A DNA stretch of 64,000 nucleotides from an uncultured Bacteroidales bacterium (lineage in GTDB: Bacteria > Bacteroidota > Bacteroidia > Bacteroidales > Muribaculaceae): positions 36,889 through 100,888 of the forward strand of contig CAMQYL010000001.1 of NCBI GenBank assembly GCA_947039275.1, written 5' to 3'. The position numbers and the translations under genes are program-made. Shown piece after piece: positions 36,860-64,000 of this stretch (the first letter of the stretch is position 1; each line of letters starts with the position of its first letter). The notes below the pieces were generated by a model. That model had not been told where the DNA came from. It saw only the letters and a list, made by a program, of their open reading frames with translations, and made no database searches.

Positions 36860-36867
36860 TAACTTTG
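36860..36867 (+). promoter_or_regulatory. candidate -7 box (TAACTTTG) for regulator A
   Basis: TAnnTTTG match 61 nt upstream of the ATG. Box, spacing and flanks are conserved with 49509-49516. Confidence 0.4.
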
Positions 36868-36875
36868 TCCCTGGT

Positions 36876-36902
36876 TGTAGGGACATGCCGTGGCATGTCC
36901 GC
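36876..36902. repeat. single REP unit (type 1) in the predicted 5' leader of regulator A
   Basis: TGTAGGGACATGCCGTGGCATGTCCGC. Confidence 0.8.
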
Positions 36903-36927
36903 TTCCCAGCCCCGTCAGTCACACCCG

Positions 36928-38568
36928 ATGAAATACCTTGCTATCTTCATAATCGCAATCGCAGCGCTGTCGGTGTCGTGCGGCAGACACGCCGCCACCG
37001 AGGCAGTCATTGACCGCGCCGACTCACTGATGACTGAGCATCCCGACTCGGCTCTGACACTGCTCAGTGCCATCGACGGCTCAGCCCTGCCCCTCGGTTC
37101 GGAGCTTAACGCCCGCTATGCCCTGCTGCTGACTCAGGCACAGGCAAAGTGCTTCAAGACCCCAGCTGACGATTCGCTCATATCCATAGCTGTTGACTAT
37201 TATACACGCCACGAAGACCTGCTGCAGCTGACCAAGGCGCATTTCTATCGCGGGAGCGTGCAGTACAAAGCCAAACATTACGCCAAGAGCCTGATGTCGA
37301 TGTTTCAGGCTCTGGAGCTGGCGCGTGAAGTGGAGTCCGATTTCTGGATGGGGCTTGCGAGCCGCGGAGTCGCCGACGTGTATCTCGCCACATATAACGG
37401 AGAGGAGGGAGTGCGATACGCACAGAAAGAATACGAGCACTTCCGTCGCGACAAAACCCAGCCATACCTAAATTACGCACTCTTAGATCTCTCAAGAGCC
37501 TACAATAACTCATGTAGATACAAGGAATCCATACCTATCTGCCGACAAGTTGTTGACTCAGCCCGTAAGCATGATGACCCATATCTTGAGCATGAAGCAT
37601 GGGGAACAATGGGACGTTCACTGATGGGAGCACAAAGATATGCAGAGTCAGCCAAAGCGTTTGAAAAAGTTTGCGTGTCAGAATACGCCACTGCCGAAGA
37701 CTCATCATACCTTGCAACCATGTATGCAAAATCCGATCGCTTGGATAAAGCCATTGATTTATATCATGCAATAGGAAACCGAGACACTACCCTCCAGCTT
37801 GACTGGCTGAAATTTGAGATATATGTACGCATTGATTCTCCATATCGTGCCATAAAATCCCTTTTAAAACTTGACACCGAACATAATGACATTATAGAAA
37901 ACCGCATAAGCATCGATCTTACGACATCGCTGCTTGATTATCATACCAATCTTCGACAGGAAGCAGAGCGTTCACGCGATCTTTCATACATGTTTATCGG
38001 CGCCATGACCATAATAGGTCTGCTGATTGCCTTTATTATTTATGTGTGGATCAAGCGGTATCGGCAGCGGCAAAAGGAAAAGATAGAGCAAGGATTGGCA
38101 ATGGTACAGTCTCTGAGCGATTCGCTACAGACCAAATCATCAGAGTGCATACAAAACCGCCAGCTTATCCATACCCTGCTCCGCAAGAAATATGTCCTGT
38201 TTGACCAACTGTGCCGTCAGGTATATCCCCGACAGGACATCGAAGCTACCAACCGGCAGCTCTATCAGACCATCACGGACTTCGTAAAAGAAATCCAGGG
38301 CAATGAAACAAAAACCGATGAATTGGAGGCGATGGTCAATCAGCATATGTCGGGTCTGATGACTGATTTCAAAGCGGATGTCCCCAAAGCCAACAAGACC
38401 GATGCCAAGCTGTTCCTGTTTTCAGTCTTAGGCTTCTCAGACACAGCCATCGCCATGTTTCTCGGCAAAAAGCAGGTAAGAGCCGTCTACGATTCGCGCC
38501 GCCACCTCAAAGACAAAATCAAAGACTCCGGCTGTCCCAACCCCGACCGCTACATCCAATACCTATAG
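36928..38568 (+). CDS. membrane-spanning regulator: lipoprotein signal + TPR-like periplasmic domain + TM + coiled coil + C-terminal LuxR/GerE-like HTH (paralog A)
   Basis: MKYLAIFIIAIAALSVSCG lipobox, a helical-repeat region of about 340 aa, TM MFIGAMTIIGLLIAFIIYVWI (about 37984-38052), and C-terminal ..LFLFSVLGFSDTAIAMFLGKKQVRAVYDSRRHLKDKI... The architecture is shared with 49581-51242. Confidence 0.65.
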   Translation: MKYLAIFIIAIAALSVSCGRHAATEAVIDRADSLMTEHPDSALTLLSAIDGSALPLGSELNARYALLLTQAQAKCFKTPADDSLISIAVDYYTRHEDLLQLTKAHFYRGSVQYKAKHYAKSLMSMFQALELAREVESDFWMGLASRGVADVYLATYNGEEGVRYAQKEYEHFRRDKTQPYLNYALLDLSRAYNNSCRYKESIPICRQVVDSARKHDDPYLEHEAWGTMGRSLMGAQRYAESAKAFEKVCVSEYATAEDSSYLATMYAKSDRLDKAIDLYHAIGNRDTTLQLDWLKFEIYVRIDSPYRAIKSLLKLDTEHNDIIENRISIDLTTSLLDYHTNLRQEAERSRDLSYMFIGAMTIIGLLIAFIIYVWIKRYRQRQKEKIEQGLAMVQSLSDSLQTKSSECIQNRQLIHTLLRKKYVLFDQLCRQVYPRQDIEATNRQLYQTITDFVKEIQGNETKTDELEAMVNQHMSGLMTDFKADVPKANKTDAKLFLFSVLGFSDTAIAMFLGKKQVRAVYDSRRHLKDKIKDSGCPNPDRYIQYL

Positions 38569-38645
38569 CACCCTCACCACCAAAATAGAGAGTGTTGCAA
38601 AACCACCAATCCACCTTCTTGTAGGGACGCGGCACAATGCTGTCT

Positions 38646-38925
38646 GCTTAAGATTATTTCGCTTGTAAAGGCGCGGCGTAGCCGCGGCAGGAGTAGTAGC
38701 CACATGCAAGCAAGTCGTCAGACTTGTGAAGCTTGTGGTCTATAGTCCCCCATCATATCCCGGCGGCGTCAGCTGCCGGGGCTGATGCATGCGATTGCCC
38801 CGGCAGTTACACCGCCGGATTTCCATTAGATCCGTTTTCCACAAGCTACGCAAGTCTGACGACTTGCTTGCATGTGGCTACTACTCCCCTCGCGGCTAAC
38901 ACCGCGAGCGTTAAGAATAAAGGGT
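38646..38925. repeat. large nested inverted repeat (about 50-bp near-perfect arms)
   Basis: GGAGTAGTAGCCACATGCAAGCAAGTCGTCAGACTTG at 38690-38726 pairs with CAAGTCTGACGACTTGCTTGCATGTGGCTACTACTCC at 38851-38887. There is an inner hairpin CCCGGCGGCG...CGCCGGG-like and flanking small hairpins. Confidence 0.75.
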
Positions 38926-38954
38926 GTTGCAGAACTCAAAAAACACGCCGCAAA

Positions 38955-39036
38955 TTGTAGGGATGCACCCTGGTGCATCCGCCAACACACTGATAATCAG
39001 TCCATGGATTTCGGCTGCGCCATGGTACATCCCTAC
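38955..39036. repeat. REPIN-like doublet (type 4 stem GGATGCACC/GGTGCATCC; right unit degenerate)
   Basis: TGTAGGGATGCACCCTGGTGCATCCGC ... GCGCCATGGTACATCCCTACA. Confidence 0.65.
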
Positions 39037-39061
39037 AATTTAGAATTATGCAACACACTCA

Positions 39062-39352
39062 GCCGTGTGTAACTCCAGACACGGTGGATACGTCTCCGAC
39101 GTGACTATGGCCTCCGTGGGAGGCACACATGTTAGGCAGTGGTAGGGCTGGTTGTAGGTCAGCTTTACCACTGTACAAGACGCATCCCCCAAACAATCCG
39201 TCGCTGTAGGCGGCGCACCTTGACGGCACGGGGCTGTGCGCCTCCTACGGAGGTGTTTTTGGAAGGGGGCGGATGTCGGCACAGTGGTCATCCCAGCCTA
39301 CAGCTTGGCTGACCACTGCCTAACATGCCGGCCTCCTACGGAGACCAGCAGC
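39062..39352. repeat. large nested inverted repeat with internal GTAGG-type units
   Basis: CATGTTAGGCAGTGGT (about 39131) pairs with ACCACTGCCTAACATG (about 39311). There are several GCCTCC(G/T)(T/A)(G/C)GGAGG hairpins, and ACGTCTCCGACGT is shared with the 20273-20674 element. Confidence 0.65.
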
Positions 39353-39532
39353 TGATACCTATAAAAACGACTTGGCAAACGGCTTCACTAACCCACTATA
39401 TATCAGTCGGTTAAAATATCGCCAACTTGGCAAGAAAATTTTCTTTACAACACGCTGATTACCAGCAATTTAAAAATCAAGGTTGCCAACTTTTTTCGCC
39501 CCGAAAATTTGGCTGTCCCATTCCAAGCACCG

Positions 39533-39540
39533 TAACTTTG
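39533..39540 (+). promoter_or_regulatory. candidate -7 box (TAACTTTG) for cassette A structural genes
   Basis: TAnnTTTG match 25 nt upstream of the 39565 ATG. Confidence 0.4.
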
Positions 39541-39564: not shown

Positions 39565-39933
39565 ATGAAAACATTCGTCACATCAATCATCTTAGCACTG
39601 TCGCTGATATCAATCTCAATAATATGCCACGGAGGTGAATCAGATACAAAGACAGGAGCAGCAGGTAGAGTAAATAAACCCGAATCCAATCGACCGACAG
39701 CCCCCTCTCATGCGTATATATATTTCACATACACGAGAGGACACATAGATTTCACACTCAGCACCACCATGGAGTACATCGATATCATCATTAGCAAAGA
39801 TGACATCCCCATATGGTCAGGCACGGTCACACAAGACGAGCCATCCGCCGACCTACCCATCCTCTATGGTGAACACACCATCGCATGTATCACCGAAAAC
39901 GGGCACGTCTATCTCGGCTATCTGGATTTCTAA
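39565..39933 (+). CDS. small secreted protein, DUF3244-like (paralog A)
   Basis: 122 aa from the internal ATG, with signal peptide MKTFVTSIILALSLISISIIC. The C-terminal block DDIPIWSGTVTQDEPSADLPILYGEHTIACITENGHVYLGYLDF is nearly identical to the 51440-51820 product. Confidence 0.7.
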   Translation: MKTFVTSIILALSLISISIICHGGESDTKTGAAGRVNKPESNRPTAPSHAYIYFTYTRGHIDFTLSTTMEYIDIIISKDDIPIWSGTVTQDEPSADLPILYGEHTIACITENGHVYLGYLDF

Positions 39934-40005: not shown

Positions 40006-40215
40006 ATGAAGACATTAAAAGACGTAATGCCTGAATGTAATCTCACGTCAGAGGAGATTTCCGCCATTGCTGGTGGACGGCGACAGGATGTGAACACACT
40101 TCGTCAGGATCCATTTCAACAAGCAGACGGATGCTATACGGGCATTTGCTCACAGAAGCTCAACCCTAAATTTTGTGAAGGTGGTGCAATATGCACCTCT
40201 GGCATAGCTGGATAA
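40006..40215 (+). CDS. RiPP-type precursor peptide with double-glycine leader (cassette A)
   Basis: 69 aa. The leader ...LTSEEISAIAGG fits the L(-12)..E(-8)(L/I)(-7)..I(-4).G(-2)G(-1) consensus. The 45-aa core RRQDV...DGCYTGICSQKLNPKFCEGGAICTSGIAG has 4 Cys. The stop is 5 nt before the rSAM start. Confidence 0.75.
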   Translation: MKTLKDVMPECNLTSEEISAIAGGRRQDVNTLRQDPFQQADGCYTGICSQKLNPKFCEGGAICTSGIAG

Positions 40216-40220
40216 GCAAC

Positions 40221-41711
40221 ATGAGCACCTGCAACGAACCAAAAATCGTGTTTAATCATGCTTATTATATTAAGCATGATGAAAAGAGATGCTTAGTTAT
40301 TTCGCAACCCTCACGAGAATGGAGTAATTGCATGGAAGGATGGATTTCAAAAATCCATCCTATCTATGCAATGATTCTGTCTCTTCTATCAGAACCAGTG
40401 TCAAAACAGGAAGCAATAGCACAAGCAGCTGCTTTCTTAGATGTCAATGATTCTGTGGCTACAGAACTAATAGAAAAACTGATGGAGTCAAAAGAACCAT
40501 TTGAAATGGATTTCGACAACTCAGTGAGCTGGTTTCCGCCCTCTATAATTCTTGAAGTCCCGTCAGATTCAATCCCATCAATACCAATAGTATACGAGCC
40601 ACAACAGTTTTGTTACGACAGCATTGATTTGACGGCACAGAGACTTATCCAAAGTCCTATAGGCATAGTATGGATGATCAACAATATATGTTTGACCGAG
40701 TGTGAATATTGCTATGCTGACAAATCTACCAAATCATCTTCATTAAATCTGTCCGAAGTGACAGAGATGTTAGATGACATATCACATAACAATATCAAGA
40801 GCTTTCAGATAGTCGGGGGAGAATTTTTCAGATATCAAAACTGGAAAGAGTTGTTGAAACTGCTCAAATCATACAATCTGCTTCCTGAACTCGTCTCTAC
40901 TAAAATGCCTTTATCAGCCGATGACATTGCAATAATAGGCGAATATGGTATACAGATACAGGTCTCGCTTGATTCTTTCAATCCTGACACTATCGCTTCT
41001 ATGTGGAGGGTAAAATCTGATTATCTATATCGAATCATAGATACAATACGTTTATTGGATAAGTACAACGTAAGATATCAGATTGCTACAGTCCTTACCA
41101 AATCCAATTCTTCAAATGAGGAACTGACATCCTTGAGCAAATTTTTAGCCACATTAGAAAACCTCAAAAGATGGGAGATACGTGTAGCATTTCGTTCTTT
41201 ATACAGCAGAAAATCGTTTGATACAATCAAACTATCTCCAAATGAAATCACGGAGGTAGACAAAATCGTCAAATCCATTATGGATACTTTCCCTAAAAAT
41301 ATACTTTGGGTTAAGGATTCGGGTCGTGAGTATTTCACGGCAAAGGAAGGTAGTCGTAGCTTCAATGGATCACGATGCTCTGCTAATTATTCCCATATGG
41401 TAGTTCTTCCTGACGGCAAGGTTACAATCTGTGAGCAGTTATATTGGGCTAAACGATTCATAATCGGGGACATAAAGCTGCAATCCATTAGAGATATTTG
41501 GAACAGTCCCGAAGCTCTACATCTCGCTAAATATCCACAATCATGTGTTCAGGCCAAAAGTCCTTGCCATGATTGCAAGTTGTATGATGATTGCCAGTTG
41601 TTTCCCAACAAATGCTATGCCGACACGATAAAGGCATACGGATGGGACAACTGGGATTATCCAGACCCGAGATGCGAGAAAGGTCTGCCATTTCTTCATT
41701 CTTTATCATAA
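40221..41711 (+). CDS. radical SAM/SPASM peptide maturase with about 155-aa N-terminal extension (possible RRE)
   Basis: 496 aa. The CxxxCxxC motif is CLTECEYC (nt 40689-40712). The C-terminal Cys-rich SPASM-like region is ..GSRCSANYSHMVVLPDGKVTICEQ...CVQAKSPCHDCKLYDDCQLFPNKC... The N-terminal segment IHPIYAMILSLLSEPVSKQEAIAQAAAFLDVNDSVATELIEKLMES resembles PqqD-like recognition elements. Confidence 0.85.
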   Translation: MSTCNEPKIVFNHAYYIKHDEKRCLVISQPSREWSNCMEGWISKIHPIYAMILSLLSEPVSKQEAIAQAAAFLDVNDSVATELIEKLMESKEPFEMDFDNSVSWFPPSIILEVPSDSIPSIPIVYEPQQFCYDSIDLTAQRLIQSPIGIVWMINNICLTECEYCYADKSTKSSSLNLSEVTEMLDDISHNNIKSFQIVGGEFFRYQNWKELLKLLKSYNLLPELVSTKMPLSADDIAIIGEYGIQIQVSLDSFNPDTIASMWRVKSDYLYRIIDTIRLLDKYNVRYQIATVLTKSNSSNEELTSLSKFLATLENLKRWEIRVAFRSLYSRKSFDTIKLSPNEITEVDKIVKSIMDTFPKNILWVKDSGREYFTAKEGSRSFNGSRCSANYSHMVVLPDGKVTICEQLYWAKRFIIGDIKLQSIRDIWNSPEALHLAKYPQSCVQAKSPCHDCKLYDDCQLFPNKCYADTIKAYGWDNWDYPDPRCEKGLPFLHSLS

Positions 41712-41728: not shown

Positions 41729-43810
41729 ATGAAAACCAGAATTATCATATTGACGAGTATCCTATCTTTCATCATCAACATTGACGCTTTCGCGCAAGGG
41801 GAGCAGAGTGACACTCTGCGGCTGGGGGAGGTGACTGTCAGGGCAGCGCAGCAGTATGTGACGGCGGATGCTGTGGTTTATGTGCCGACTAAGGCTGACA
41901 AGAGGGATGCGCAGAGTGCGGTGGATCTGCTGCGGATGTCGGCTATACCGCAGATTAAGGTCAATCCAGTGGATGACAAAGTGACTGACAACTTCGGCGA
42001 GGATGTCAGCATATTTCTCAATTATCTCCCGGCTGGTAAGGAAGACATTTCCGGGCTTAAAACATCGGATGTGAAGAAAATCGAATATCTCACCTCCCCA
42101 ACCGATCCGCGGTTCAGAGGCGCAAAATCGGTCATAAATATCATCGTCACCGAATACGCATATGGCGGTTACACCAAACTTTCATCCACGCTACGCACTA
42201 TCAGCGACATCTCCGGAGGCGTGGATGTCTACAGCAAATTCGCATACAAACGGATGACTTTTGACCTGTATGCCGCGCTTAAAGAGTCATCGACACACCA
42301 CTCAGGCACATCCAACGATGACCGATACACCGTTGCCGACGGTATCGTCACAAGAAAGGAGACTCCCCAATCGTCTTACCTGCGTGACAGCCGTTATCCC
42401 ATCACCTTCCGCGCCACCTACAATGCACCCACCATGCAGCTGAGCAACGCTGTGGCATTTTCACATACAGCCACACGAGCCAATGACGAAAGCGGACTGA
42501 TAGATTATAATGGAGGAGCATACGGCACAACCACAGAAGCATACCGAAGATATGAGCCTGACATGTCAAACTCGGCGATGTTCTTAGGGTCTTATTATTT
42601 CGAGCTACCCAAAGGCTGGGCATTAAGCATCGTCCCTCAGCTCTCCTATTCACACTACACCGACAATCTCGGCTATTACGTCACTGACTCATCGCCGATT
42701 ATCAGAGACATAGCCGAAGATGCCACCAGCGGAGCCATTGACGGATATTTAGAAAAGACTTTCGGACAATCACATTCGCTCATACTCGGAGTCTCTTATG
42801 AAAATGAGCATAACACCCTCCATTATATCAGAGAAAACAGCAAAGAAACAATCACCTATGATGCCGTAGACGGCTATGCCGGTTACACGTTCAGCAAAAA
42901 CGGATTGACAGCATCTATCGAAGGAGGCATGAAATGGGACAAATCCAAAGCCGGAGACAGCAGCGACCATAGTATTTCGCCGTTTGTCGACTGTGATTTA
43001 CGCTACAGCCCCGATACAAGAAACATGTTCTCCGCAAGCATACGGTATAAGACGACACCTCCTGCGTCCTTTCAGAAAACATCAGCGATATTGCTGGAAA
43101 ACGAGTTTCTATACGTCACAGGCAATGCGTCGCTGAAAAACGACCGACAACTCACAGCCAATCTTGGATACTCATACATCCCGTCAAACCTCATCACATT
43201 AAGCGGATATGCAAGCTATCGCGGAATCTATGACCGAATAACCGAATCATATGCGCCTTACGCAGAGGGGACAAGGCTCCTGCGCACATATGCCAACGAC
43301 GGACGTTACGACCGCATCATGGCAGGTGTATCGCTTTTTTGGAAACCGTTGGACGGAAAGCTCGTAGTCAGTTCTTCGCCAGGATTTGCCCACTATCAGA
43401 TCAGCGGACCTGTGGCAAGATGTTACAACGCATTCCAATTCAACGCCTCCGTCAGAGGAAGCCTGTCGAATTTCTATGCCTCCGCGTCTTTCAAACTCCA
43501 AAGCCGTGAATTAGCCAGTTCAAACAATGCCATATGGAAAGACCGTGACTACTATTCCATCGAAGCCGGCTGGGCAAATGACAATCTAAACGTCCGCCTC
43601 AACGCAGCCAACCTGTTCAATCGCGGATGGGTAAGCATAACCCAGGATATGGAGAGCGAGCTATGCTCCTATTACCGCACATACTACGGCAGCACATACC
43701 ATACCACTCTGTCACTGAGCGTCACCTACACCATCGGTTACGGCAAAAAAATCACCCGCCGCAACGAGATAGGTGAACTCAACCAATCCAGCTCAGCCAT
43801 AATGAAATAA
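41729..43810 (+). CDS. TonB-dependent-receptor-like outer membrane beta-barrel protein (OMP_b-brl_3-like)
   Basis: 693 aa from the internal ATG, with signal peptide MKTRIIILTSILSFIINIDAFAQ and plug-like ..LRLGEVTVRAA...KKIEYLTSP... It is the most divergent member of the family. Confidence 0.7.
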   Translation: MKTRIIILTSILSFIINIDAFAQGEQSDTLRLGEVTVRAAQQYVTADAVVYVPTKADKRDAQSAVDLLRMSAIPQIKVNPVDDKVTDNFGEDVSIFLNYLPAGKEDISGLKTSDVKKIEYLTSPTDPRFRGAKSVINIIVTEYAYGGYTKLSSTLRTISDISGGVDVYSKFAYKRMTFDLYAALKESSTHHSGTSNDDRYTVADGIVTRKETPQSSYLRDSRYPITFRATYNAPTMQLSNAVAFSHTATRANDESGLIDYNGGAYGTTTEAYRRYEPDMSNSAMFLGSYYFELPKGWALSIVPQLSYSHYTDNLGYYVTDSSPIIRDIAEDATSGAIDGYLEKTFGQSHSLILGVSYENEHNTLHYIRENSKETITYDAVDGYAGYTFSKNGLTASIEGGMKWDKSKAGDSSDHSISPFVDCDLRYSPDTRNMFSASIRYKTTPPASFQKTSAILLENEFLYVTGNASLKNDRQLTANLGYSYIPSNLITLSGYASYRGIYDRITESYAPYAEGTRLLRTYANDGRYDRIMAGVSLFWKPLDGKLVVSSSPGFAHYQISGPVARCYNAFQFNASVRGSLSNFYASASFKLQSRELASSNNAIWKDRDYYSIEAGWANDNLNVRLNAANLFNRGWVSITQDMESELCSYYRTYYGSTYHTTLSLSVTYTIGYGKKITRRNEIGELNQSSSAIMK

Positions 43811-43913
43811 AACCCATCGCCACAGCAGCAATATAGACTGTAATATGCTGGCAATCAATGCAATATCTTTAAAATTCCACATTCATAGTCATAATCGCCT
43901 GATTTACAGCCAA

Positions 43914-44096
43914 ATACAGCCTATATTCATAAAAATACTAAAATTAAATTTTCATATCCTCGCAATATCCTTATTATCAATTAGTTACAAAGCACAAAAG
44001 CCAAATAATTTTTCCGTCAAAATAAGCAACAAACGAAAAATAGGCTCTAATTTTGCAGTTTGACATTCATTATTTTTCATCACATTCAGTAATCCG
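43914..44096 (+). promoter_or_regulatory. repeated promoter/leader cassette, copy 1 (upstream of barrel gene 44097)
   Basis: Contains ATACAGCCTATATTCATAAAAATACTAAAATTAAATTTT, AAAGCCAAATAATTTTTC (43997-44014), the -7 box TAATTTTG (44048-44055) and the leader ...TTTTCATCACATTCAGTAATCCGATG. About 80 percent alignable by eye with 46413-46594. Confidence 0.55.
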
Positions 44097-46277: not shown

Positions 46278-46412
46278 CCCACTCCCAACAACAAAAATAT
46301 ACAAACATACCACCACATCAAACCTGAATATAGATTATAAACTGCTATAAATCACCAATATAGACCCAAAGATAATAAGAAATCGGTCTTAACAGCTTGA
46401 TTATCAGATAAA

Positions 46413-46594
46413 TACAATCTATATTTTCAAAAAGACTAAAAATAAAATTTTGCACTTTCATAACTCTCTAATTTTAAGCACATTACAAAGCGCAAAAGCC
46501 AAATGATTTTTCTCTCAATATCAGCAAGAAACGGAAAATATGCTCTAATTTTGCAGTTTGACATTAATTAATTTTCATCACATTAAATAATCCG
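46413..46594 (+). promoter_or_regulatory. repeated promoter/leader cassette, copy 2 (upstream of ABC exporter)
   Basis: TACAATCTATATTTTCAAAAAGACTAAAAATAAAATTTT, AAAGCCAAATGATTTTTC (46495-46512), -7 box TAATTTTG (46546-46553), and leader ...TTTTCATCACATTAAATAATCCGATG. Confidence 0.55.
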
Positions 46595-48824: not shown

Positions 48825-49025
48825 ATGGCATCAGACAACGAAAAAATAGAGCTGCGCAGCGAGAAAGTCCGCCACCTCATCTCCGAAATCCCCCCGGCAC
48901 TCGTCCGCTGGGGCATCGCCATCATAGCCATAATCACCGCCGCCCTCCTCCTCGCCGTCTGCCTCCTCCCCTATCCCTACTCCGCCGGCGAATCCATCCT
49001 CCGCCACCTCCTCGACTCGATATAG
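48825..49025 (+). pseudogene. truncated HlyD-family periplasmic adaptor (N-terminal 66 aa only)
   Basis: MASDNEKIELRSEKVRHLISEIPPALVRWGIAIIAIITAALLL... matches the N-terminal cytoplasmic tail plus TM of Bacteroidetes HlyD adaptors that follow C39-ABC genes, which are normally about 400 aa. The frame ends at 49025, and the 49113-49353 inverted repeat begins 88 nt downstream. Confidence 0.5.
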
Positions 49026-49516: not shown

Positions 49517-49524
49517 TTCCCCGT

Positions 49525-51415: not shown

Positions 51416-51423
51416 TAACTTTG
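51416..51423 (+). promoter_or_regulatory. candidate -7 box (TAACTTTG) for cassette B structural genes
   Basis: TAnnTTTG match 17 nt upstream of the 51440 ATG. AAAGCCAAAAAATTTTTTC at 51301-51319 resembles the cassette motif. Confidence 0.4.
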
Positions 51424-55293: not shown

Positions 55294-55488
55294 ATGGAAC
55301 ACTCTATCATCAAAAAAATCGTCGCGACCCCAGAACTACTCAGCGAGATGGAAGCCCTCGAAATCCGCGGAGGCATCCGTAATAACGGAGATGATATCTA
55401 TGCTTTAGGCAGATGTCAGGTTTATTCTGGCAATTGTGTCCCCGGATGCGCCTGCAAAATTGAACCAGACAGACCTGGCTTAAAATGA
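55294..55488 (+). CDS. RiPP-type precursor peptide with double-glycine leader (cassette B)
   Basis: 64 aa. The leader ...LLSEMEALEIRGG fits the double-glycine consensus. The 37-aa core IRNNGDDIYALGRCQVYSGNCVPGCACKIEPDRPGLK has 4 Cys. It is followed by a strong hairpin. Confidence 0.7.
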   Translation: MEHSIIKKIVATPELLSEMEALEIRGGIRNNGDDIYALGRCQVYSGNCVPGCACKIEPDRPGLK

Positions 55489-55499: not shown

Positions 55500-55543
55500 T
55501 TCCTCGTAATGCAAGACATCCAATGTCTAAGCATTACGAGGAA
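55500..55543 (+). terminator. long hairpin (terminator/attenuator candidate) directly after precursor B
   Basis: TTCCTCGTAATGC-A-AGACAT-CCA-ATGTCT-A-GCATTACGAGGAA, followed by TGATTTTCTT. A near-copy lies at 59174-59215. Confidence 0.55.
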
Positions 55544-58174: not shown

Positions 58175-58355
58175 TACAATCTATATTTCAAAAAAGCCTA
58201 AAAATTAAAAACCAACTATCTGTAACACATTGATTATATGAATGTTACATAACGTCAAAGCCAAATGATTTTTTCACCCAAACATGGCTCCAAGAATCAA
58301 AATTCAGTATCTTTGCGAATTAACTACCTGTTTTTATCAATCAACACAATCTATC
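58175..58355 (+). promoter_or_regulatory. repeated promoter/leader cassette, copy 3
   Basis: TTACAATCTATATTTCAAAAAAGCCTAAAAATTAAAAACC, AAAGCCAAATGATTTTTTC (58258-58276) and -7 box TATCTTTG (58308-58315). Confidence 0.5.
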
Positions 58356-58733
58356 ATGAGTGTATTTTTTAAGAGTATTGCTGCTATAACGTTAGGCTTG
58401 TTGGCAGTATCGTGTGGCAGCGACAATGACGAGGATGTGATGCAGCCTATGAGCCTGTCGGATGGTTCTGTCAAAATGTGCCTTCGAGGAGATACACAAT
58501 CCATCAGCATCAGTGGCGGCAGCGGCAACTTCACTGTTGCGGTCAATGGTAATTCCGTCACTGCTGCCTGTGACGGACGCATCATCAGACTCACGCCCGA
58601 AGCATTTGGCGATGCCACGCTTACGGTAACTGACGCTTCAACTGGAGCAACGGCACAGTGCACCGTCAACGTCGGTAAATCGTTTGCCGAATTCCGTCCT
58701 TCATACACCATCGACCCGTTTTTCGGCGAGTAA
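58356..58733 (+). CDS. small lipoprotein with Ig-like (Big_2-like) fold
   Basis: 125 aa from the internal ATG, with lipobox ..LGLLAVSCGSDND and ..ISISGGSGNFTVAVNGNSVTAACDGRIIRLTPEAFGDATLTVTD... It ends at TAA 58731-58733, in the same frame as the next ORF. Confidence 0.55.
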   Translation: MSVFFKSIAAITLGLLAVSCGSDNDEDVMQPMSLSDGSVKMCLRGDTQSISISGGSGNFTVAVNGNSVTAACDGRIIRLTPEAFGDATLTVTDASTGATAQCTVNVGKSFAEFRPSYTIDPFFGE

Positions 58734-58745
58734 AGCATCCTCTAC

Positions 58746-59153
58746 ATGGACTGCGACTTGCAGTCATCTCCGCGCCAGTGGGTAATTACCACCCTGAACG
58801 GGCATAAACTCCACGAAGGGACTTTCACCACGACATATATGCGAGACGAGACCGTGACCAACCAAGGCGAGGATTACAACTTCGCCCTTTTTACCCTTGA
58901 AATGAACGAGGGCAGCACTACACACCATTACATAGCAGGCGACATGATGACCATCGCAGACGGCACTCCCTGGTGGGCAATCCTATTCCCCGGCACAGGC
59001 TGGCACGCTCTGAACCAGACTGCACTTGATAAAGCCCTGACACGCTCAACAATGCCCACGACCATCATCGGCATCTCATTCTTCGGCACCGATGCTGACC
59101 TGCTCAACCCCTTGGTGTCATGGCGAGCCACAGATCCAGTTCCCCTCCCATAA
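58746..59153 (+). CDS. hypothetical protein (same frame as the upstream lipoprotein; possibly its detached C-terminal domain)
   Basis: 135 aa with no signal peptide and no recognised motif. The ATG is 12 nt after the upstream TAA, in frame. Confidence 0.4.
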   Translation: MDCDLQSSPRQWVITTLNGHKLHEGTFTTTYMRDETVTNQGEDYNFALFTLEMNEGSTTHHYIAGDMMTIADGTPWWAILFPGTGWHALNQTALDKALTRSTMPTTIIGISFFGTDADLLNPLVSWRATDPVPLP

Positions 59154-59173: not shown

Positions 59174-59219
59174 TCCTCGTAATGCAAGCAATCCAATGTC
59201 TCAGCATTACGAGGATTTT
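59174..59219 (+). terminator. second copy of the long hairpin (terminator/attenuator candidate)
   Basis: TCCTCGTAATGC-AAGCAATCCAATGTCTC-AGCATTACGAGGA followed by TTTTCC. It shares the stem and most of the loop with 55500-55543. Confidence 0.55.
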
Positions 59220-59325: not shown

Positions 59326-61620
59326 ATGAATCGGACAATACTTGCAGCAGCATTTTGCCTAATAATGCTTACGGCTTTCGGGCGTGAGATTACAGGGAGT
59401 GTCGTATCACGGACTGACGGTGAGGGAGTCATCGGGGCGTATGTGTCAATGTTTGAGAGGGATTCGTTGTTACAGGTATTGCAATCAGATGCGGAGGGGT
59501 TGTTTTCATTAGATGTTACTGATTCGGCGAAGTGTTCGCTGACCGTTACAGCATTGGGATACAGGGATGTGGAGATTGATTTGCTGACGGATACAATCAG
59601 CAGCCCCCTGAAAGTCTACATGGATGAAAATGACGGCATCGCATTGGGCGAGGTGGTTGTGTCGGCTGACAAGAGCCAGATGGTCAGGCGTACTGCCAAC
59701 GGGCAGATATTCTATCTATCCAAAGATGCCAAGGAGCTTAAAAATCCGTTTCAGGCGTTACAGGAAGTGCCGCTGCTGATTGCCGACGAAGCTAATTCCA
59801 CAATCAGGATGCTTGACGGCAAAACACCCCTCATACTGATAGACGGCAACAGGGTCAACTCCGGCATAGCACCGCTAAACCCTTCGGAAATCGAATCGGT
59901 GGAGGTTGTCAATGTCGTCCCGGCACGCTACCTGCAAGAAGGCTATGACGGCATCATAAACATCAAACTGAAAAAGCATGCCGGACCCTACTTGTGGGCA
60001 GAAGCAGCGACACGTCACGAGCTACCTCTACACAACGGTTTCGGAGTAGGCTACTTCGAAGTGGGGAATCAGAAGTACAGTCTCTACGGTCGTGGAGTCT
60101 ACAATTATACCCATAACGATGACACCGACCGCGACACATGGCGCGAAGCTCCCACATACTCCCAGCAGTTCACATCGGCAGAACGCAATAACGGACACTC
60201 ATGGATCGGCGAACTGCTGTTTAAGTGGAACGTTGCCCCCAAAGACTATATCGCCATCCATGGATATATCAACCGTGACCACACTTCATCTCACACCACT
60301 GGCGCAGGAGAATATACAGCAGATGACTGTCAGCCTTACAGCTTCACTGCCGACGATCGAAACGACTGCACTGTAGTGACCTCAAGCCTCTATTACAAGC
60401 ACACCTTTGAGCCATCGTCAGACAACATCCTGGAAGTCAGAGCCGCATATAACCATAACAGCAACATCCTTGACTCGTGGCGCTCGGAACAGTATGGATC
60501 GACTGTCTCTCCTCTCGCATCATCGTTTGACAATCTGCGCAACTCAGGCAATGTGGACGTGGACTATTCAAAATCCTACGCATCGGGCATCTCCATATCG
60601 TTTGGCAACCACCTATCCCTACAGTCCGATAGGATACATCAGATAAGCTCTCCCTACCCCATCTTCCATCATCGGAAACTCAACGAGTACCTGTTTGGCT
60701 CAGTCAGTGGAAAGATTCATAACATCTATTATCTTGCCTCGCTCGGATTGGAGATGATATGGCTCAAAGCCGGAGAAACCGACAACGACTATATGCGTCC
60801 ACGCGCATCCCTTAGCGGCACATGGGCTATCACCAGCAACAATTCGCTCCAACTGGGCTATACCCTCTCTAACGAAACGCCTCAGATATCCGAACTCAAT
60901 CCATACGACACCTCCACAGATCCGTTGCTCGTAGTCAGTGGCAACCCCTATCTCAAGCCGCAGACCACTCATCGCGTGAACCTCAACTATACCTTCAATC
61001 GTGGCAATCTTTACCTGCAGCCATCGCTGTCATATCGCGTAATGTCTGACATGATAGAGCCTGGAGGATATATGGTCGGCGATGTCTACCATAGCACATA
61101 CCTCAACACCGGACATTTCTCCCAGCTGACAGCTTCAATCTATGCAAGCTACCGCTTCCGATGGGGACGCATAGGCATCGGAGGTGGATGGAGCGAGAGC
61201 TATTACACGGATGCCCCGGCTCGGGGAGCATTTCTGTCAATGATGGATTTCAATGCCCGCGCAGGCAGATTTTCATTCTACGCCAATGTCGACTACACCA
61301 ACCGTGAAATCGGCAAGACCTCTGTGGTGCGCAATCTCCGTCCCACCATGGCACAGGTGCAGGTAAACTACAACATAACCCCCGATTTCTACATAGCCCT
61401 CTGCCTACAGAACATCACAGGCGAAGTCCGCACCCGCACCGTCTTAGATGACGGAGCCTACCACAGCATCACCCGTACAAACTACCGTGACCGCAACCTG
61501 CGCCCGTGGATTCTCCTCCGCTACACCTTCCGCAAAAACGCCCACCGAAAAATCGACCTCGGCAACAACATCCTCCGCGCCGAGGAAGAAGGCATCCGCC
61601 TGACCCCCTCCCCCAAGTAA
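59326..61620 (+). CDS. TonB-dependent-receptor-like outer membrane protein with CarboxypepD_reg-like N-domain (OMP_b-brl_3-like)
   Basis: 764 aa from the internal ATG, with signal peptide MNRTILAAAFCLIMLTAFG, ..ITGSVVSRTDGEGVIGAYVSMFE...DAEGLFSL.., and family motif ..ETPQISELNPYDTSTDPLLVVSGNPYLKPQ... Confidence 0.85.
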   Translation: MNRTILAAAFCLIMLTAFGREITGSVVSRTDGEGVIGAYVSMFERDSLLQVLQSDAEGLFSLDVTDSAKCSLTVTALGYRDVEIDLLTDTISSPLKVYMDENDGIALGEVVVSADKSQMVRRTANGQIFYLSKDAKELKNPFQALQEVPLLIADEANSTIRMLDGKTPLILIDGNRVNSGIAPLNPSEIESVEVVNVVPARYLQEGYDGIINIKLKKHAGPYLWAEAATRHELPLHNGFGVGYFEVGNQKYSLYGRGVYNYTHNDDTDRDTWREAPTYSQQFTSAERNNGHSWIGELLFKWNVAPKDYIAIHGYINRDHTSSHTTGAGEYTADDCQPYSFTADDRNDCTVVTSSLYYKHTFEPSSDNILEVRAAYNHNSNILDSWRSEQYGSTVSPLASSFDNLRNSGNVDVDYSKSYASGISISFGNHLSLQSDRIHQISSPYPIFHHRKLNEYLFGSVSGKIHNIYYLASLGLEMIWLKAGETDNDYMRPRASLSGTWAITSNNSLQLGYTLSNETPQISELNPYDTSTDPLLVVSGNPYLKPQTTHRVNLNYTFNRGNLYLQPSLSYRVMSDMIEPGGYMVGDVYHSTYLNTGHFSQLTASIYASYRFRWGRIGIGGGWSESYYTDAPARGAFLSMMDFNARAGRFSFYANVDYTNREIGKTSVVRNLRPTMAQVQVNYNITPDFYIALCLQNITGEVRTRTVLDDGAYHSITRTNYRDRNLRPWILLRYTFRKNAHRKIDLGNNILRAEEEGIRLTPSPK

Positions 61621-61726
61621 AAATATATCCCTCTCACATTAAATATAGACCATATATATCTGAATGTCAGTGTATTATGTGCCATACCCCATGTATATTA
61701 CTCTTAACACATTGATTAATAGAAGA

Positions 61727-61933
61727 TTACAATCTATATTTTGAAAAAGACAAAAATTAATTTCTCAGCAGTCTATAACCATCTGATTATTACATCATTA
61801 CAAACCAGTGATGCCAAATCATTTTTTGCCATATTTTCGTTAAACGCTTAATATAACCGTAAATTTGTGCTCAAATAATCTTCCATTAAAGACCAGAAAC
61901 CACCTTCAAATTCAGGTCTGATATATCGCATAA
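61727..61933 (+). promoter_or_regulatory. repeated promoter/leader cassette, copy 4
   Basis: TTACAATCTATATTTTGAAAAAGACAAAAATTAATTTC, ATGCCAAATCATTTTTTGCC (61811-61830) and -7 box TAAATTTG (61860-61867). Confidence 0.5.
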
Positions 61934-64000
61934 ATGAAACCACTCATCATTATCGTGCTGGCTATTGCTACCACATCTTCAAGTCTGATAGCTGGAGCAA
62001 TGGAACAGCTGAAAGGGGTCGTGATTGACGACTTCAGCATGCCGATAGAACTTGCATCTGTGAGGATGCTGTCGGCTGACAGCACTTTCATTGACGGTGC
62101 GGTTACAGACTCTTGCGGACGGTTTTCTATGCGTCTGCTGCCTGATGCTCGGTATGTGTCTGTGTCCGCTTTGGGTTATGAGGATGTGTCATTGGGAATT
62201 TCTTCGCTGTCCGACACAATCAGGCTGCATACTCCCACCCTGAATTTAGGGGAAGTTACGGTCAATGGCGCTAAGAACCCGGTGACTCTTAACGGCAGTA
62301 ACATCATAGTGGATATTCAGCACACTCTGCTTGGTGACATGCCCACAACCGAAGATGTGCTTAACCATCTGCCATCAGTGTCAGGAAGCGGAGGCACATA
62401 TCAAGTATTCGGGCGTGGAGTCGCCACCATATACATCAACAACCGAAAAGTTACTGACAACGGACAACTTTCCCGCTTGCGACCATCGGACATCCGTAAA
62501 ATTGAGGTGGTGCGTAATCCAGGGGCTGAATATGACTCCGATACCCCTGCCGTGATACGCATATATCTCAAGCGTTCGGCTTTTGACGGATTAGGTGTAG
62601 ATGCAATGGTCTACGTTAGCCAAGGACGACGTTTTTCCGACTACGAACAGCTCTCTCTTACATACGGCATCGGAGCTGTGAATCTATTTTTTACCGCTGC
62701 CAATTCATCATCTCGACTAAGAAGCGACCAGACAAATCTGCAAAGCACCTACACTTCTGCCGGAATATGGGAGATGATATCCGATATGCCACGGTGGGAT
62801 TCAGAATACTATAATTTATCGCTTAACGGCGGCTTAAACATCACTGTGTCACAAGCGCATCAATTAGGTGCAAAATTCAGCTATACCTCAGACACACAAC
62901 GTAACGGCGGAGGGAAATCATCATATATGACCCTTGATGATTCCCCTTATGAGATCTTAGCATCCTCAAGCTGCAGTCCGCAAGGATACCACCAATATCT
63001 GACCAACATATATTATGAGGGCAGGCTGTCAGAGAAAACGGAACTCGTATTCAACGGAGATTACATAAACCGCCGCTCACACAATACAGATGAAATCACC
63101 GAGGAAGGCAATCTCACACCACTGCACGCAGTCGAAAACATCAACATGGCTACCTACAACTTATGGTCATCAAATCTTAAACTGAATTGGAAGCCGACTG
63201 ACCCTTTTGATTTTACCTTCGGTTGCGATGGAGATATAATCAAGCAAAACCGCACAAGCAATCAGACCGGAAACATATATACCTCTCAACTTGACTCTAA
63301 GGAGTCAAAATATGGCTTGTTTGCCCAAGGGAGATTCGACCTACAGAAATGGAGTTTTTCTTTAGGACTGAGATATGAATGGAACAGTATGCGTTACACA
63401 GACGGCATCAGTCAGGTGCAATTGCTTGACAAGGACTATTGCCGTCTCTATCCCTCCGCATCCATATCTACCAAATGCGGCAAAACCGATATGACCCTCT
63501 CCTTCACATCCAAAATCCGTCGCCCAACATTCTATCAGTTACGCAACAGCAGCGAATATTTCAACCGCTATGAGACCACTGAGGGCAACCCTATGTTGCT
63601 GCCGACATACACTTATGACTTGACATATTCCGTGGGTTACTCAGACATCACCGCCAACATCGGATACCGCTGGATCAAGGATTACATTGCCGAAGAAAAT
63701 ACCATCGATACAGCCAATCCGCTGCATATGACTTCGCGTCCATTTAACAAACCACTCTACACGGCTTTTGATATCGGCATAAATTACAATAAGACATTTG
63801 GATGCTATCACCCCTATCTGTCGGCTGAATTATCCAAGACATTTTACACCATGGAAAACCGGACGTTAAATACTCCGACCGTAGGCAAAACACCCTCAAT
63901 GCGATTCACTCTGTCTAATTATATCACCATAGGAGGCTATAAGCTCTATCTTGATATAAAGTATTCTCCTGCCGGTTCGTATTGTCAGTTTTGGGAGGAC
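61934..64000 (+). CDS. TonB-dependent-receptor-like outer membrane protein (OMP_b-brl_3-like), 3' end outside window
   Basis: Not in the ORF track because it has no stop in the window. My translation from ATG 61934 is open to base 64000: MKPLIIIVLAIATTSSSLIAGAMEQLKGVVIDDFSMPIELASVRMLSADSTFIDGAVTDSCGRFSM..., with family motif ..IRRPTFYQLRNSSEYFNRYETTEGNPMLLPT... Confidence 0.8.
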   Translation, partial: MKPLIIIVLAIATTSSSLIAGAMEQLKGVVIDDFSMPIELASVRMLSADSTFIDGAVTDSCGRFSMRLLPDARYVSVSALGYEDVSLGISSLSDTIRLHTPTLNLGEVTVNGAKNPVTLNGSNIIVDIQHTLLGDMPTTEDVLNHLPSVSGSGGTYQVFGRGVATIYINNRKVTDNGQLSRLRPSDIRKIEVVRNPGAEYDSDTPAVIRIYLKRSAFDGLGVDAMVYVSQGRRFSDYEQLSLTYGIGAVNLFFTAANSSSRLRSDQTNLQSTYTSAGIWEMISDMPRWDSEYYNLSLNGGLNITVSQAHQLGAKFSYTSDTQRNGGGKSSYMTLDDSPYEILASSSCSPQGYHQYLTNIYYEGRLSEKTELVFNGDYINRRSHNTDEITEEGNLTPLHAVENINMATYNLWSSNLKLNWKPTDPFDFTFGCDGDIIKQNRTSNQTGNIYTSQLDSKESKYGLFAQGRFDLQKWSFSLGLRYEWNSMRYTDGISQVQLLDKDYCRLYPSASISTKCGKTDMTLSFTSKIRRPTFYQLRNSSEYFNRYETTEGNPMLLPTYTYDLTYSVGYSDITANIGYRWIKDYIAEENTIDTANPLHMTSRPFNKPLYTAFDIGINYNKTFGCYHPYLSAELSKTFYTMENRTLNTPTVGKTPSMRFTLSNYITIGGYKLYLDIKYSPAGSYCQFWED

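Follow-up and report, generated by a model that had tools for sequence, protein, structure and literature searches.

Radical-SAM peptide cassettes behind a recurring regulatory head in a probable antagonism island of a Muribaculaceae chromosome

Introduction

What do two neighboring peptide cassettes, each headed by its own membrane-spanning regulator and each accompanied by outer membrane barrels, produce, and how would the product leave the cell? The question is raised by a stretch of 64,000 nucleotides (nt) from an uncultured bacterium of the family Muribaculaceae (contig CAMQYL010000001.1 of assembly GCA_947039275.1, positions 36,889 to 100,888; hereafter the window, in whose own numbering all coordinates are given). 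From 36860 to the end of the window, a sequence-only reading had described two tandem, paralogous cassettes for peptides modified by radical S-adenosylmethionine (rSAM) enzymes. All the open reading frames (ORFs) that it listed lie on the plus strand at the coordinates it gave, and the components that it had taken as the logic of peptides made on ribosomes and modified after translation (RiPPs), namely a precursor, an rSAM maturase and an exporter that cleaves the leader, are present.

Taken as a whole, the locus is on balance probably a hypervariable, recombining antagonism island built of modular cassettes under one-component control, in the chromosome of a mouse- or human-gut bacterium similar to Candidatus Amulumruptor. 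Bacteroidales clusters that combine rSAM enzymes, C39-peptidase ABC exporters (PCATs), outer membrane proteins (OMPs) and tetratricopeptide repeat (TPR) proteins are already known and have been listed in silico (PMC10352776). What appears to be undescribed is that the head module of these cassettes, a regulator with a beta-sandwich protein, is general and its two genes strictly adjacent, along with the family of the small protein itself, a conserved mini-HlyD, a shared promoter box, the shuffling of heads and cargo, and the signature of one peptide/maturase family (PepA/rSAM-A). To our knowledge, no radical-SAM-modified bacteriocin from Bacteroidales has been characterized, and the arrangement of head, rSAM-peptide pair and barrel has never been studied experimentally.

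Two cassettes with a common layout

Cassettes A and B each consist of a regulator with TPR, transmembrane (TM) and helix-turn-helix (HTH) segments, then a small secreted protein, and then an rSAM gene with a Cys-rich peptide and barrels; the order of regulator, small protein, rSAM-peptide pair and barrel is met again in metagenomes. Hidden Markov model scans bore out the proposed domain content, that is, two rSAM enzymes, a C39-type ABC exporter, the TPR/TM/HTH regulators (the HTH by profile) and OMP_b-brl_3 barrels. The description of the cassettes as paralogous holds for their heads but not for their enzymes and products. The regulators RegA (36928..38568) and RegB (49581..51242), which like all genes described here from 36860 onward are on the plus strand, share 36% identity over their full length, and the small proteins SmallA (39565..39933) and SmallB (51440..51820) share 44%, but the rSAM enzymes and the peptides belong to unrelated families.

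Peptides and maturases

The precursors PepA (40006..40215) and PepB (55294..55488) both have double-glycine leaders, ending in LTSEEISAIAGG and LSEMEALEIRGG, respectively, and four Cys residues in the core. The core of PepA is 45 amino acids (aa) long with the motif DGCxxxxC...FCxGGAxCTSG, that of PepB is 37 aa long, and the two are unrelated to each other. A six-frame screen of the whole window for an acidic leader, a hydrophobic-x-GG site and a core with at least three Cys returned just these two ORFs, and homologues of both adjoin homologous rSAM genes elsewhere, in agreement with the earlier identification of both as GG-leader Cys-rich peptides.

After a gap of 5 nt (40216-40220, as had been read) PepA is followed by rSAM-A (40221..41711), a maturase of the radical SAM/SPASM type. 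Its family is a large one among Bacteroidia (889 matches at E < 1e-5) and has no specific curated model in NCBIfam. This enzyme matches PF04055 with 47.9 bits (cut-off 29.5) and the SPASM family PF13186 with 44.8 (cut-off 21.5), and its CX3CX2C motif reads CLTECEYC. rSAM-B (51830..53101) matches PF04055 with 70.4 bits, carries the motif as CNLRCWYC and ends in a Cys-rich C-terminal domain; it gave no match to PF13186 at E <= 0.01, and its alignment to TIGR04463 covers residues 6-384. BLASTP detected no similarity between the two enzymes, which are unrelated beyond the superfamily.

The best matches of rSAM-B in NCBIfam (E = 1e-36 to 1e-20) are the ranthipeptide, SCIFF and sactipeptide maturases TIGR04463 (126 bits, cut-off 525), CefB NF038107 (124, cut-off 600), PapB NF047865 (104, cut-off 340) and TIGR03974 (72, cut-off 425). 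Judged by sequence, rSAM-B is closest to maturases of Cys-rich peptides of the ranthipeptide and SCIFF type, at scores far under every cut-off. The substrate core is Cys-rich in those systems as in the window, and the N-terminal extension of rSAM-B reads like a RiPP recognition element, a further likeness to ranthipeptide-type maturases. Unlike the ranthipeptide/SCIFF systems, the host here is Gram-negative and the genes are accompanied by barrels and a dedicated regulator. The sequence-only reading had instead pointed to the GG-Bacteroidales system of TIGR04148, TIGR04149 and TIGR04150, which likewise joins a GG-leader peptide to an rSAM in Bacteroidota. That assignment fails, since rSAM-B scores 54.4 bits against the TIGR04148 cut-off of 300 and rSAM-A 32 against the TIGR04150 cut-off of 250; unlike that system, the window also has no pseudo-rSAM partner. 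PepA and PepB match no NCBIfam model whatever, and neither rSAM/peptide system has a characterized product or a curated family in NCBIfam.

Cores of the PepA type were found upstream of rSAM-A homologues (43-51% identity) in three unrelated contigs (our loci L023, L024 and L026) and in a close relative of the window (L035), all sharing the signature DGC-x4-C…(F/L)C-x-GGA-x-CTS-x-G. The recurrence of this signature ahead of rSAM-A homologues indicates that the PepA ORF is real and that PepA/rSAM-A form a conserved, uncharacterized RiPP family. PepB-like leaders precede an rSAM-B homologue (45%) in locus L017, where a BarB1 homologue (31%), a PCAT (69%) and a 67-aa mini-HlyD (55%) come next. L035 (3573-4077) also encodes another PepA paralogue, diverged (46% identity), 64 aa long and with 3 Cys, directly upstream of a PepA identical (100%) to that of the window; hence, two precursors would be available to one rSAM-A there. 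The rSAM-A-family clusters of L023 and L026 (Porphyromonas pogonae and a metagenome contig) contain glycosyltransferases (GT2, GT7C) and MacB/FtsX and no barrel, which suggests glycosylated variants of PepA-type peptides.

A regulatory head with variable cargo

Both regulators contain TPR repeats according to the Pfam scan. When 49 homologues are aligned, an N-terminal hydrophobic stretch is seen to lead to a Cys (position 19) that is at least 90% conserved, which we take as a lipoprotein-type signal in RegA and RegB; the TPR repeats are followed by a single internal hydrophobic helix, basic residues, a helical region (a cytoplasmic coiled coil in RegA) and a conserved C-terminal GFS…I…Y…R…KI. 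The C-terminal domain covers residues ~390-546 in RegA and ~392-553 in RegB. A profile of 20 such domains matches the DNA-binding domains of VraR (E = 1.7e-6 to 1e-5), FixJ (1e-3) and NarL (0.1), and it is from such profile-sequence matches that the LuxR/NarL-type HTH is assigned. RegA and RegB themselves have no Pfam GerE match, and among their relatives one matches GerE PF00196 (1.8e-7) and two match Sigma70_r4_2. On this sequence evidence we accept RegA and RegB as predicted envelope-spanning one-component regulators with a periplasmic TPR domain, one TM helix and a cytoplasmic LuxR-type HTH. Both match the NCBIfam model NF053779 ("BT3442 family") over nearly their full length (RegA 61.5 bits, E = 6e-17; RegB 38.1 bits, E = 8e-10), at scores far below its equivalog cut-off of 940, and are distant homologues, not equivalogs, of that family. 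Many RegA homologues at least 90% identical are shortened (373, 282, 273, 155 or 86 aa) and occur on dozens of contigs, suggesting that an interrupted regulator gene is a common natural allele.

The partner gene encodes a protein with a Sec-type signal peptide in both cassettes, and its C-terminal ~55 aa are nearly invariant across a family with ~305 cluster representatives in the full profile search. The name "DUF3244-like" given to it earlier is backed by a likeness of the modeled fold, by a weak profile similarity and by genomic position, but not by the Pfam model. None of 21 close family members matches DUF3244 (PF11589) even at E <= 10, and 54 sampled members match no Pfam family, PF11589 included, at E <= 0.01. 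An AF2 model is an all-beta sandwich (pLDDT 78.5) for which Foldseek ranks the DUF3244 structure 3d33 first and second and 3sd2 fifth in the PDB, with probability 1.0 but at E = 0.03-0.05 and TM = 0.57-0.67. With hhalign, the family aligned to one genuine PF11589 protein with 56% probability (E = 1e-4, in register up to the C-terminus), and no match to a second one was obtained. Genuine PF11589 proteins in L021 and L026 are found directly downstream of a BT3442-like TPR regulator, and SmallA and SmallB are placed alike. The label is thus a fair one for the modeled fold and the position, and by the family model these proteins form a distinct, unannotated sister family.

Two candidate explanations concerning this family were rejected. 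SmallB seemed disrupted in some populations (58-aa calls in L012/L013), but the DNA there is the same as in the window and the short calls are a gene-calling artifact. Recent gene conversion does not account for the invariant C-terminus either: identity at four-fold degenerate sites is mostly 0.3-0.6, which indicates constraint at the protein level, with the exception of the winA/L035/L056 group (0.85-0.95).

The gene-neighborhood analysis proposed in the earlier reading was run on a metagenome sample; a degenerate DNA pattern, built on the motif conserved in the small proteins, served to collect it (31 stretches, 21 of them encoding a family member and 17 assessable upstream). In all 17 assessable loci, the gene immediately upstream of the small protein, on the same strand, encodes a regulator homologue, as in every separately fetched locus that encodes a small-family protein. 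In the other direction there is one exception, the regulator homologue P0066 (locus L019), which has neither small protein nor cargo alongside. The order regulator, small protein, cargo and barrel is a recurrent one, and many contigs have several such cassettes in tandem. The commonest cargo are GG-leader Cys-rich peptides, with very diverse cores, together with one or two rSAM enzymes; others combine an rSAM with two DUF6734 proteins or a Peptidase_C10 lipoprotein with one of 261 aa, or consist of a Thiol_cytolysin-like lipoprotein or of lipoproteins that belong to no known family. The head precedes the Thiol_cytolysin-like lipoprotein in L034 (395-1567) and a Peptidase_C10/Inhibitor_I69 lipoprotein in L005 (2305-3753), which links it to protein toxins and proteases. 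In L001 (12032-14963), the two DUF6734 proteins (476 and 496 aa) stand in tandem behind the rSAM and may be additional tailoring enzymes.

More distant versions of the head are also known. In L021, a distant regulator homologue and a genuine DUF3244 gene head a locus with VKOR, peptide, thioredoxin, PCAT and HlyD genes, which is the bacteroidetocin gene set. In Bacteroides thetaiotaomicron, a MACPF cluster with an outer membrane barrel begins with BT_3442 (TPR) and BT_3441, which is homologous to the DUF3244 structure 3d33 (PMC2954219). The constant association that had been proposed between all these components therefore stands in part: the rSAM-peptide pair does recur in synteny with regulator, small protein and barrels, but the same head also precedes non-RiPP cargo, and the rSAM-A/PepA family is found without the head. 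Likewise, the idea of an uncharacterized RiPP class agrees with the missing characterized product and curated family, but the head is no signature of such a class. Since it precedes non-RiPP cargo too, the regulator and small protein are, by sequence and synteny, a general regulatory head for secreted, mostly antagonism-type cargo. We found no functional study of DUF3244, DUF6377, PF14905 or BT3442 in the literature.

Heads and cargo are also exchanged between strains. L035 carries the cargo of cassette A nearly unchanged (PepA 100%, BarA1 96%, PCAT 99%) behind a regulator of 31% and a small protein of 49% identity, with breakpoints near 39030/39595 and within the conserved 3' half of the small gene; the SmallA and L035 tails have 0.95 identity at four-fold degenerate sites. 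In strain M7, RegA (94%) is followed by a wholly different cassette. Strain DNA diverges at breakpoints within the small gene's 3' half and at the 5' end of the regulator gene, the only DNA common to all cassettes; these are plausible crossover sites, and protein constraint plausibly explains most of their conservation.

This exchange bears on the possibility that the peptides are signals, i.e., autoinducers that are exported and then detected by the cognate regulator through its periplasmic TPR domain, in quorum sensing or positive feedback. TPR regulators that bind secreted peptides, such as the RNPP family, are well known, and they provide a precedent for such a circuit. Those regulators are also cited in the published survey of rSAM clusters (PMC10352776). 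The TPR domain here would be extracytoplasmic, given the conserved lipoprotein Cys and the TM helix downstream, so that no import would be needed, and each cassette has its own regulator paralogue. Nevertheless, the same head is found on protease and cytolysin-like cassettes without a peptide, so a peptide is not its general ligand; identical PepA/rSAM-A cargo behind a 31%-identical regulator is hard to square with specific pairing of peptide and sensor, and it is with the small protein, not with the peptide, that the regulator is invariably paired. We consider the signal role improbable.

Promoters and transcription units

Several operons of the island share a promoter motif. GCCAAM-N42-TAnnTTTG occurs five times in the window, always at this locus, on the plus strand and before operon starts (chance expectation, 0.01), so placed that the GCCAAM box lies exactly 48 nt upstream of the -7 element in five σA-type promoters; a sixth copy of the box has N41 spacing. 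The five TAnnTTTG elements lie at 39533, 44048, 46546, 51416 and 58308. TAnnTTTG is the -7 element of σA promoters in Bacteroidetes, and the box would accordingly be centered near -55, a typical activator position. Two of the copies are the promoters of the SmallA operon (39485..39540; GCCAAC, 42 nt, TAACTTTG) and of the SmallB operon (51368..51423; GCCAAA, 42 nt, TAACTTTG). The others belong to an intergenic element of ~215 nt present four times: upstream of BarA2 (43889..44104, box and -7 element at 44000-44055), of PCAT (46387..46602, box and -7 element at 46498-46553), of a split lipoprotein gene (promoter at 58260..58315, same box and spacing) and of BarB4 (61702..61826, with the 41-nt spacing). 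Outside the window, an alignment of small-gene promoters from related cassettes, anchored at the -7 box, places (R)CCAAAY at this same distance in nine or more distinct promoters. The box is also present in the promoter of a relocated PepB homologue. A repeat search in the distant loci L014, L017 and L021 found no shared promoter repeats.

The regulators have a different promoter and leader, which in RegA (36860..36907) consists of a -7 box (TAACTTTG) and then half of a palindrome resembling repetitive extragenic palindromic (REP) elements, and which is 90% identical to its paralogue before RegB (49509..49556). We rejected this 48-nt element as a specific operator, because its palindrome is half of the REP-like element, also found at 474, 16542 and 33085. 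The REP-like palindrome (TTGTAGGGACATGCCRTGGCATGTCCGC … inverted copy) is scattered intergenically (11 matches against 0.2 expected), at 474-562, 16542-16621, 33085-33160, 38619 and 38955-39038, with the half copies of the regulator leaders at 36875 and 49524.

Two terminator-like hairpins were found on the plus strand. One (55501..55542; -29.8 kcal/mol, z = -9.3, then a U-rich tract) ends operon B after PepB, and a second copy (59174..59215; -20.5 kcal/mol, z = -6.5, with a U-tract) follows the split lipoprotein. The predicted transcription units are RegA; SmallA-PepA-rSAM-A-BarA1; BarA2; PCAT-miniHlyD; RegB; SmallB-rSAM-B-BarB1-PepB; BarB2; the split lipoprotein; BarB3; and BarB4.

Exporter and outer membrane barrels

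The window contains a single PCAT (46595..48820), with Peptidase_C39 (PF03412, 120 bits), ABC_membrane (PF00664, 87 bits) and ABC_tran (PF00005, 108 bits) domains and the QCG motif in its translation; as the only copy, it presumably serves both peptides. Directly behind it is a 66-aa protein (48825..49025) with a single TM segment that is homologous to the N-terminus of HlyD and had been taken for an HlyD remnant. It has no Pfam match, and none of the periplasmic adaptor domains of a full HlyD-type protein (lipoyl, hairpin, beta-barrel) was found in it. In distant genomes, homologues stand directly after PCATs of 67-69% identity: one has 67 aa, is 55% identical and ends at the same point, and another has 59 aa; more distant loci have longer HlyD forms of 164 aa and a full 429 aa. 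The similarity does not extend beyond the cytoplasmic and TM part at the N-terminus, with 37% identity over 51 aa to the full HlyD of L021. A frame and sequence kept over such distances argue for a conserved mini-protein rather than a decaying fragment, and we refer to it as mini-HlyD.

The system would therefore seem, as far as its genes tell, to work without a periplasm-spanning adaptor, having mini-HlyD only. It would not be alone in this, since in-silico mining has found several Bacteroidales rSAM clusters with PCAT and OMP but without a membrane fusion protein (MFP) (PMC10352776), and how peptides exported by PCATs cross the outer membrane of Bacteroidales is an acknowledged open question (PMC6671954).

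The barrels are candidates for this step. BarA1 (41729..43810) is a divergent OMP_b-brl_3-type barrel with no Pfam match, recognized with hhalign against a profile of the other barrels (99.4%, E = 2.5e-21). The OMP_b-brl_3 family PF14905 is matched by BarA2 (44097..46277) with 169 bits, by BarB1 (53098..55272), whose start overlaps the end of rSAM-B in an ATGA as had been claimed, with 66 bits, by BarB2 (55729..58074) with 197 bits, by BarB3 (59326..61620) with 61 bits, and by BarB4 (61934..64000) with 98 bits. The last, absent from the earlier list, is a sixth barrel and continues beyond the window end. Plug is above the cut-off in BarB4 alone (27.0 against 23.9), with a weak match in BarB3, and TonB_dep_Rec_b-barrel in BarB2 alone (50.3); CarboxypepD_reg is found in BarB2 and BarB4. 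A sequence search of BarA1 and BarB1 against the PDB returned nothing, and the barrels of the window are mutually 20-35% identical.

Instead of exporting the peptides, the barrels might be receptors, either for uptake or surface binding of the own product or as toxin-resistant replacement alleles of OMPs that toxins of this same locus attack in other strains, conferring immunity as at BSAP loci. BSAP-1 and BSAP-4 target beta-barrel OMPs, and the target gene of sensitive strains occupies the position of the toxin gene of producers (PMC11901371). The island also lies at a fixed site with strain-variable, very divergent barrels (20-35%), and barrels evolve faster than rSAM and PCAT (31%, 45% and 69% in L017), as expected of diversifying surface proteins. 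Several of them have the importer-typical Plug, TonB_dep_Rec or CarboxypepD_reg domains, and non-peptide cargo is likewise accompanied by barrels. On the other hand, most rSAM cassettes have the barrel gene overlapping or adjoining the rSAM gene, and a barrel decays once its rSAM is replaced, which together suggest that the barrel serves the cargo of its own cassette; moreover, the MFP/TolC route is apparently missing, so an exporter would still be required. By analogy with BSAP loci the receptor role is a possible reading and the strongest of the alternatives, if one on the unlikely side.

A metallophore pathway, in which Cys-rich modified peptides would bind metal and be retaken through the TonB-receptor-like barrels, seems very improbable to us. 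It has its precedent in methanobactin/MbnT, and it would fit the Cys-rich cores and the TonB-receptor-like barrels adjoining biosynthetic genes. Methanobactin is also mentioned in the rSAM survey (PMC10352776). Nevertheless, barrels of the same family stand behind non-peptide cargo, and this variability of the cargo argues against a metallophore role of the barrels. Domain scans showed no periplasmic binding protein, inner membrane importer or metal-responsive regulator at the locus, and the extreme diversity of the cores between cassettes and the strain-level mosaic of presence and absence fit better with an arms race and are typical of antagonism loci.

Remnants of cassette exchange

The stretch of 55.7-61.6 kb, which had been counted as three more barrels and a lipoprotein of cassette B, turned out differently when compared with the DNA of related strains (the comparison covers 55.7-61.6 kb and stops short of BarB4, from 61934 onward). 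BarB3 is 94% identical to a barrel that in L005 stands behind a peptide-rSAM pair, and it stands alone in the window. The split lipoprotein (58356..59153) consists of two ORFs (58356-58733 and 58746-59153) that in L005 are one single 261-aa lipoprotein; its location behind a C10 peptidase in other strains marks it as a cassette remnant in the window. BarB1 is frameshifted in those genomes where a C10 cassette replaces rSAM-B. The region would therefore hold orphan barrels (BarB2, BarB3) and a split lipoprotein left over from cassette exchange, outside cassette B.

Could the whole island be a mostly inactive mosaic of decaying cassette fragments, without a current product? The split lipoprotein gene, the orphan barrels BarB2 and BarB3, the ~1 kb of repeat-rich noncoding DNA between RegA and SmallA, the shortened RegA variants common in metagenomes and the lack of a full-length HlyD would fit. 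However, the core genes of both cassettes and the PCAT are intact ORFs, conserved at 94-100% in related strains and at 45-69% in distant ones, mini-HlyD is conserved in length and sequence across lineages, and promoter boxes and terminators are intact. Such a mostly inactive mosaic has little chance of being right, and we retain the reading in which two RiPP cassettes are intact.

The noncoding gap between RegA and SmallA (38569..39484) contains long inverted repeats and degenerate REP-like copies, with a breakpoint relative to related strains near 39030. Inverted repeats with arms of 41-67 nt, 75-95% complementary and 100-160 nt apart, occupy 38679-39347 and also 49114-49353; they may be elements similar to miniature inverted-repeat transposable elements or recombination scars, and one of the two gaps holds the strain breakpoint.

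Proposed mechanism

We propose that the head module drives a secreted cargo that varies between cassettes and that a TonB-receptor-like OMP_b-brl_3 barrel usually follows; the cargo operon opens with the gene of the small protein. Cassette A carries PepA with rSAM-A and BarA1 (together with BarA2), and cassette B carries PepB with rSAM-B and BarB1, the two being the intact RiPP cassettes of the window. The regulator would activate the σA-type promoters with the CCAAA box 48 nt upstream of the -7 element, as the motif suggests, and each rSAM would cross-link its own Cys-rich core, by analogy through thioether chemistry. The single PCAT would then cut after GG and export both peptides with the 66-aa mini-HlyD, probably into the periplasm, from where the cassette barrels might carry them across the outer membrane, the least certain step. 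The small protein could be to the TPR domain what ToxS is to ToxR, a partner in the periplasm, with feedback on cassette expression; the variable N-terminal half of the small protein would be matched to the cognate regulator, and the invariant C-terminal half to a common partner. By analogy, the products are most likely anti-Bacteroidales bacteriocins.

Several observations weigh against this reading. More distant cassettes, those of L014, L017 and L021 among them, lack the exact CCAAA box and have a different motif at the equivalent place, and the regulator genes themselves are without it. Foldseek found nothing significant for an AF2 model of the regulator C-terminal domain (pLDDT 88), the best matches being sigma-like domains at E = 0.8, and the many shortened RegA variants of natural populations indicate that the regulator may often be dispensable. 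Barrel type is not tied one-to-one to rSAM type, the rSAM-A homologue of L024 being followed by a BarB4/BarA2-like barrel, and the rSAM-A relatives in L023 and L026 have no recognized barrel directly after the rSAM. The barrel-export step has gene linkage, the missing full MFP and one distant precedent, Oar, as its whole basis, the role given to the small protein is pure inference, and the antibacterial activity of the products is assumed by analogy.

A bolder form of the proposal would make the regulator/DUF3244-like pair a so far unrecognized envelope signaling pair and the common master switch of Bacteroidales polymorphic toxin cassettes, spanning rSAM peptides, bacteroidetocin-type peptides, MACPF and cholesterol-dependent cytolysin-like toxins and C10 proteases, and, at the same time, barrels, PCAT and mini-HlyD a new two-step outer membrane export route that replaces MFP/TolC. 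We put forward this joint reading tentatively and regard it as unlikely.

Comparison with known systems

The closest described relatives are bacteroidetocins (class IIf; Coyne et al. 2019, PMC6671954), which like the peptides of the window are GG-leader, Cys-containing Bacteroidales peptides processed and exported by a C39-ABC transporter. The PCAT of the window is 53% identical to that of the bacteroidetocin-type locus L021, which is also headed by a related TPR regulator and a genuine DUF3244 protein, and the crossing of the outer membrane is unexplained in both cases. However, the disulfides of bacteroidetocins are formed by a multi-TM (VKOR-like) protein together with a thiol oxidoreductase, and their loci contain no rSAM, whereas domain scans of the window found no VKOR or thioredoxin gene and, of that set, the PCAT only; rSAM maturases, OMP_b-brl_3 barrels and mini-HlyD distinguish it further. 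The published four-gene description of bacteroidetocins does not include a regulator or a DUF3244 gene (PMC6671954). The BT_3442/BT_3441 cluster of the MACPF (BSAP-like) type similarly has a TPR protein, then a small Ig-like DUF3244 protein, and an outer membrane barrel, but its cargo are MACPF and lectin-like lipoproteins, not RiPPs (PMC2954219).

For the head module, an analogy may be drawn with ToxR/ToxS. ToxR is a transcription factor that spans the inner membrane and has a periplasmic sensor, and ToxS is its adjacent small, periplasmic, beta-rich partner. The window pair has in common with them a membrane-spanning factor with periplasmic sensor and an adjacent gene for a small beta-rich protein. 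The two differ in that ToxR has an N-terminal OmpR-type winged helix, and the window regulators are reversed, with a C-terminal LuxR-type DNA-binding domain; their sensor is a TPR domain with a lipoprotein signal, unlike that of ToxR, and their small gene is predicted to belong to the regulated operon and not to be cotranscribed with the regulator, unlike toxS. There is no sequence homology between the two pairs, and the comparison is one of analogy only.

For the barrels, the precedent is Oar, a TonB-dependent transporter required for the secretion of PopC in Myxococcus (PMC6434023). Oar and the window barrels may be compared as TonB-receptor-like proteins with a CarboxypepD_reg-type N-terminal domain and a proposed outward movement of periplasmic cargo; the cargo of Oar is a protein, and in the window it would be a peptide, with the export role inferred. 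A 2025 review of Bacteroidales toxins and antagonism does not contain the term "radical SAM" and tabulates receptors, immunity and activation, with no entry for regulation (PMC11901371).

Genomic setting of the island

Proteins at least 90% identical to those of the window are labeled Candidatus Amulumruptor sp., family Muribaculaceae, and in the stretches compared the window is identical to contigs of GCA_948572125.1. Among GTDB species representatives, "Bacteroidales bacterium M7" alone has the close small-protein family. The site of the island in the chromosome is a fixed one, to judge from the flanks that related strains share. At 40001-42000 and 50001-52000, where the small, peptide and rSAM genes are located, GC content is at its lowest in the window (0.41-0.42 against ~0.50), as would fit cassette cargo acquired by horizontal exchange.

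Next to the island, on its upstream side (21400-33682), is another natural-product cluster. This cluster has a sensor protein with dCache, HAMP and SpoIIE-phosphatase domains (21400-23742), a bimodular nonribosomal peptide synthetase of 2425 aa (24053-31330; two Condensation and two AMP-binding stretches, PP-binding, and a terminal NAD_binding_4 reductase), a MatE/HATPase_c_2 fusion (31327-33066) and a phosphopantetheinyl transferase (33095-33682). Divergent from RegA, on the minus strand, is a gene of the TraB/PrgY/GumN family (35732-36682; E = 6e-60), accompanied by an ABC ATPase and a 275-aa ORF (34022-36682). The PrgY/TraB family has been tied to pheromone shutdown in enterococci. An Rfam scan of 33-64 kb found nothing beyond chance matches to miRNA-like hairpins.

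Implications

The locus offers two intact and compact pairs of peptide and maturase for heterologous expression. The regulator/partner pair that heads many toxin cassettes, together with a concrete promoter box, makes weapon switching in gut Bacteroidales testable, and mini-HlyD and the cassette barrels bear on the question of how PCAT-exported peptides cross the outer membrane (PMC6671954). The shuffling of heads and cargo shows how strain-level diversity in antagonism originates in Muribaculaceae, a dominant and little-studied family of the mouse gut.

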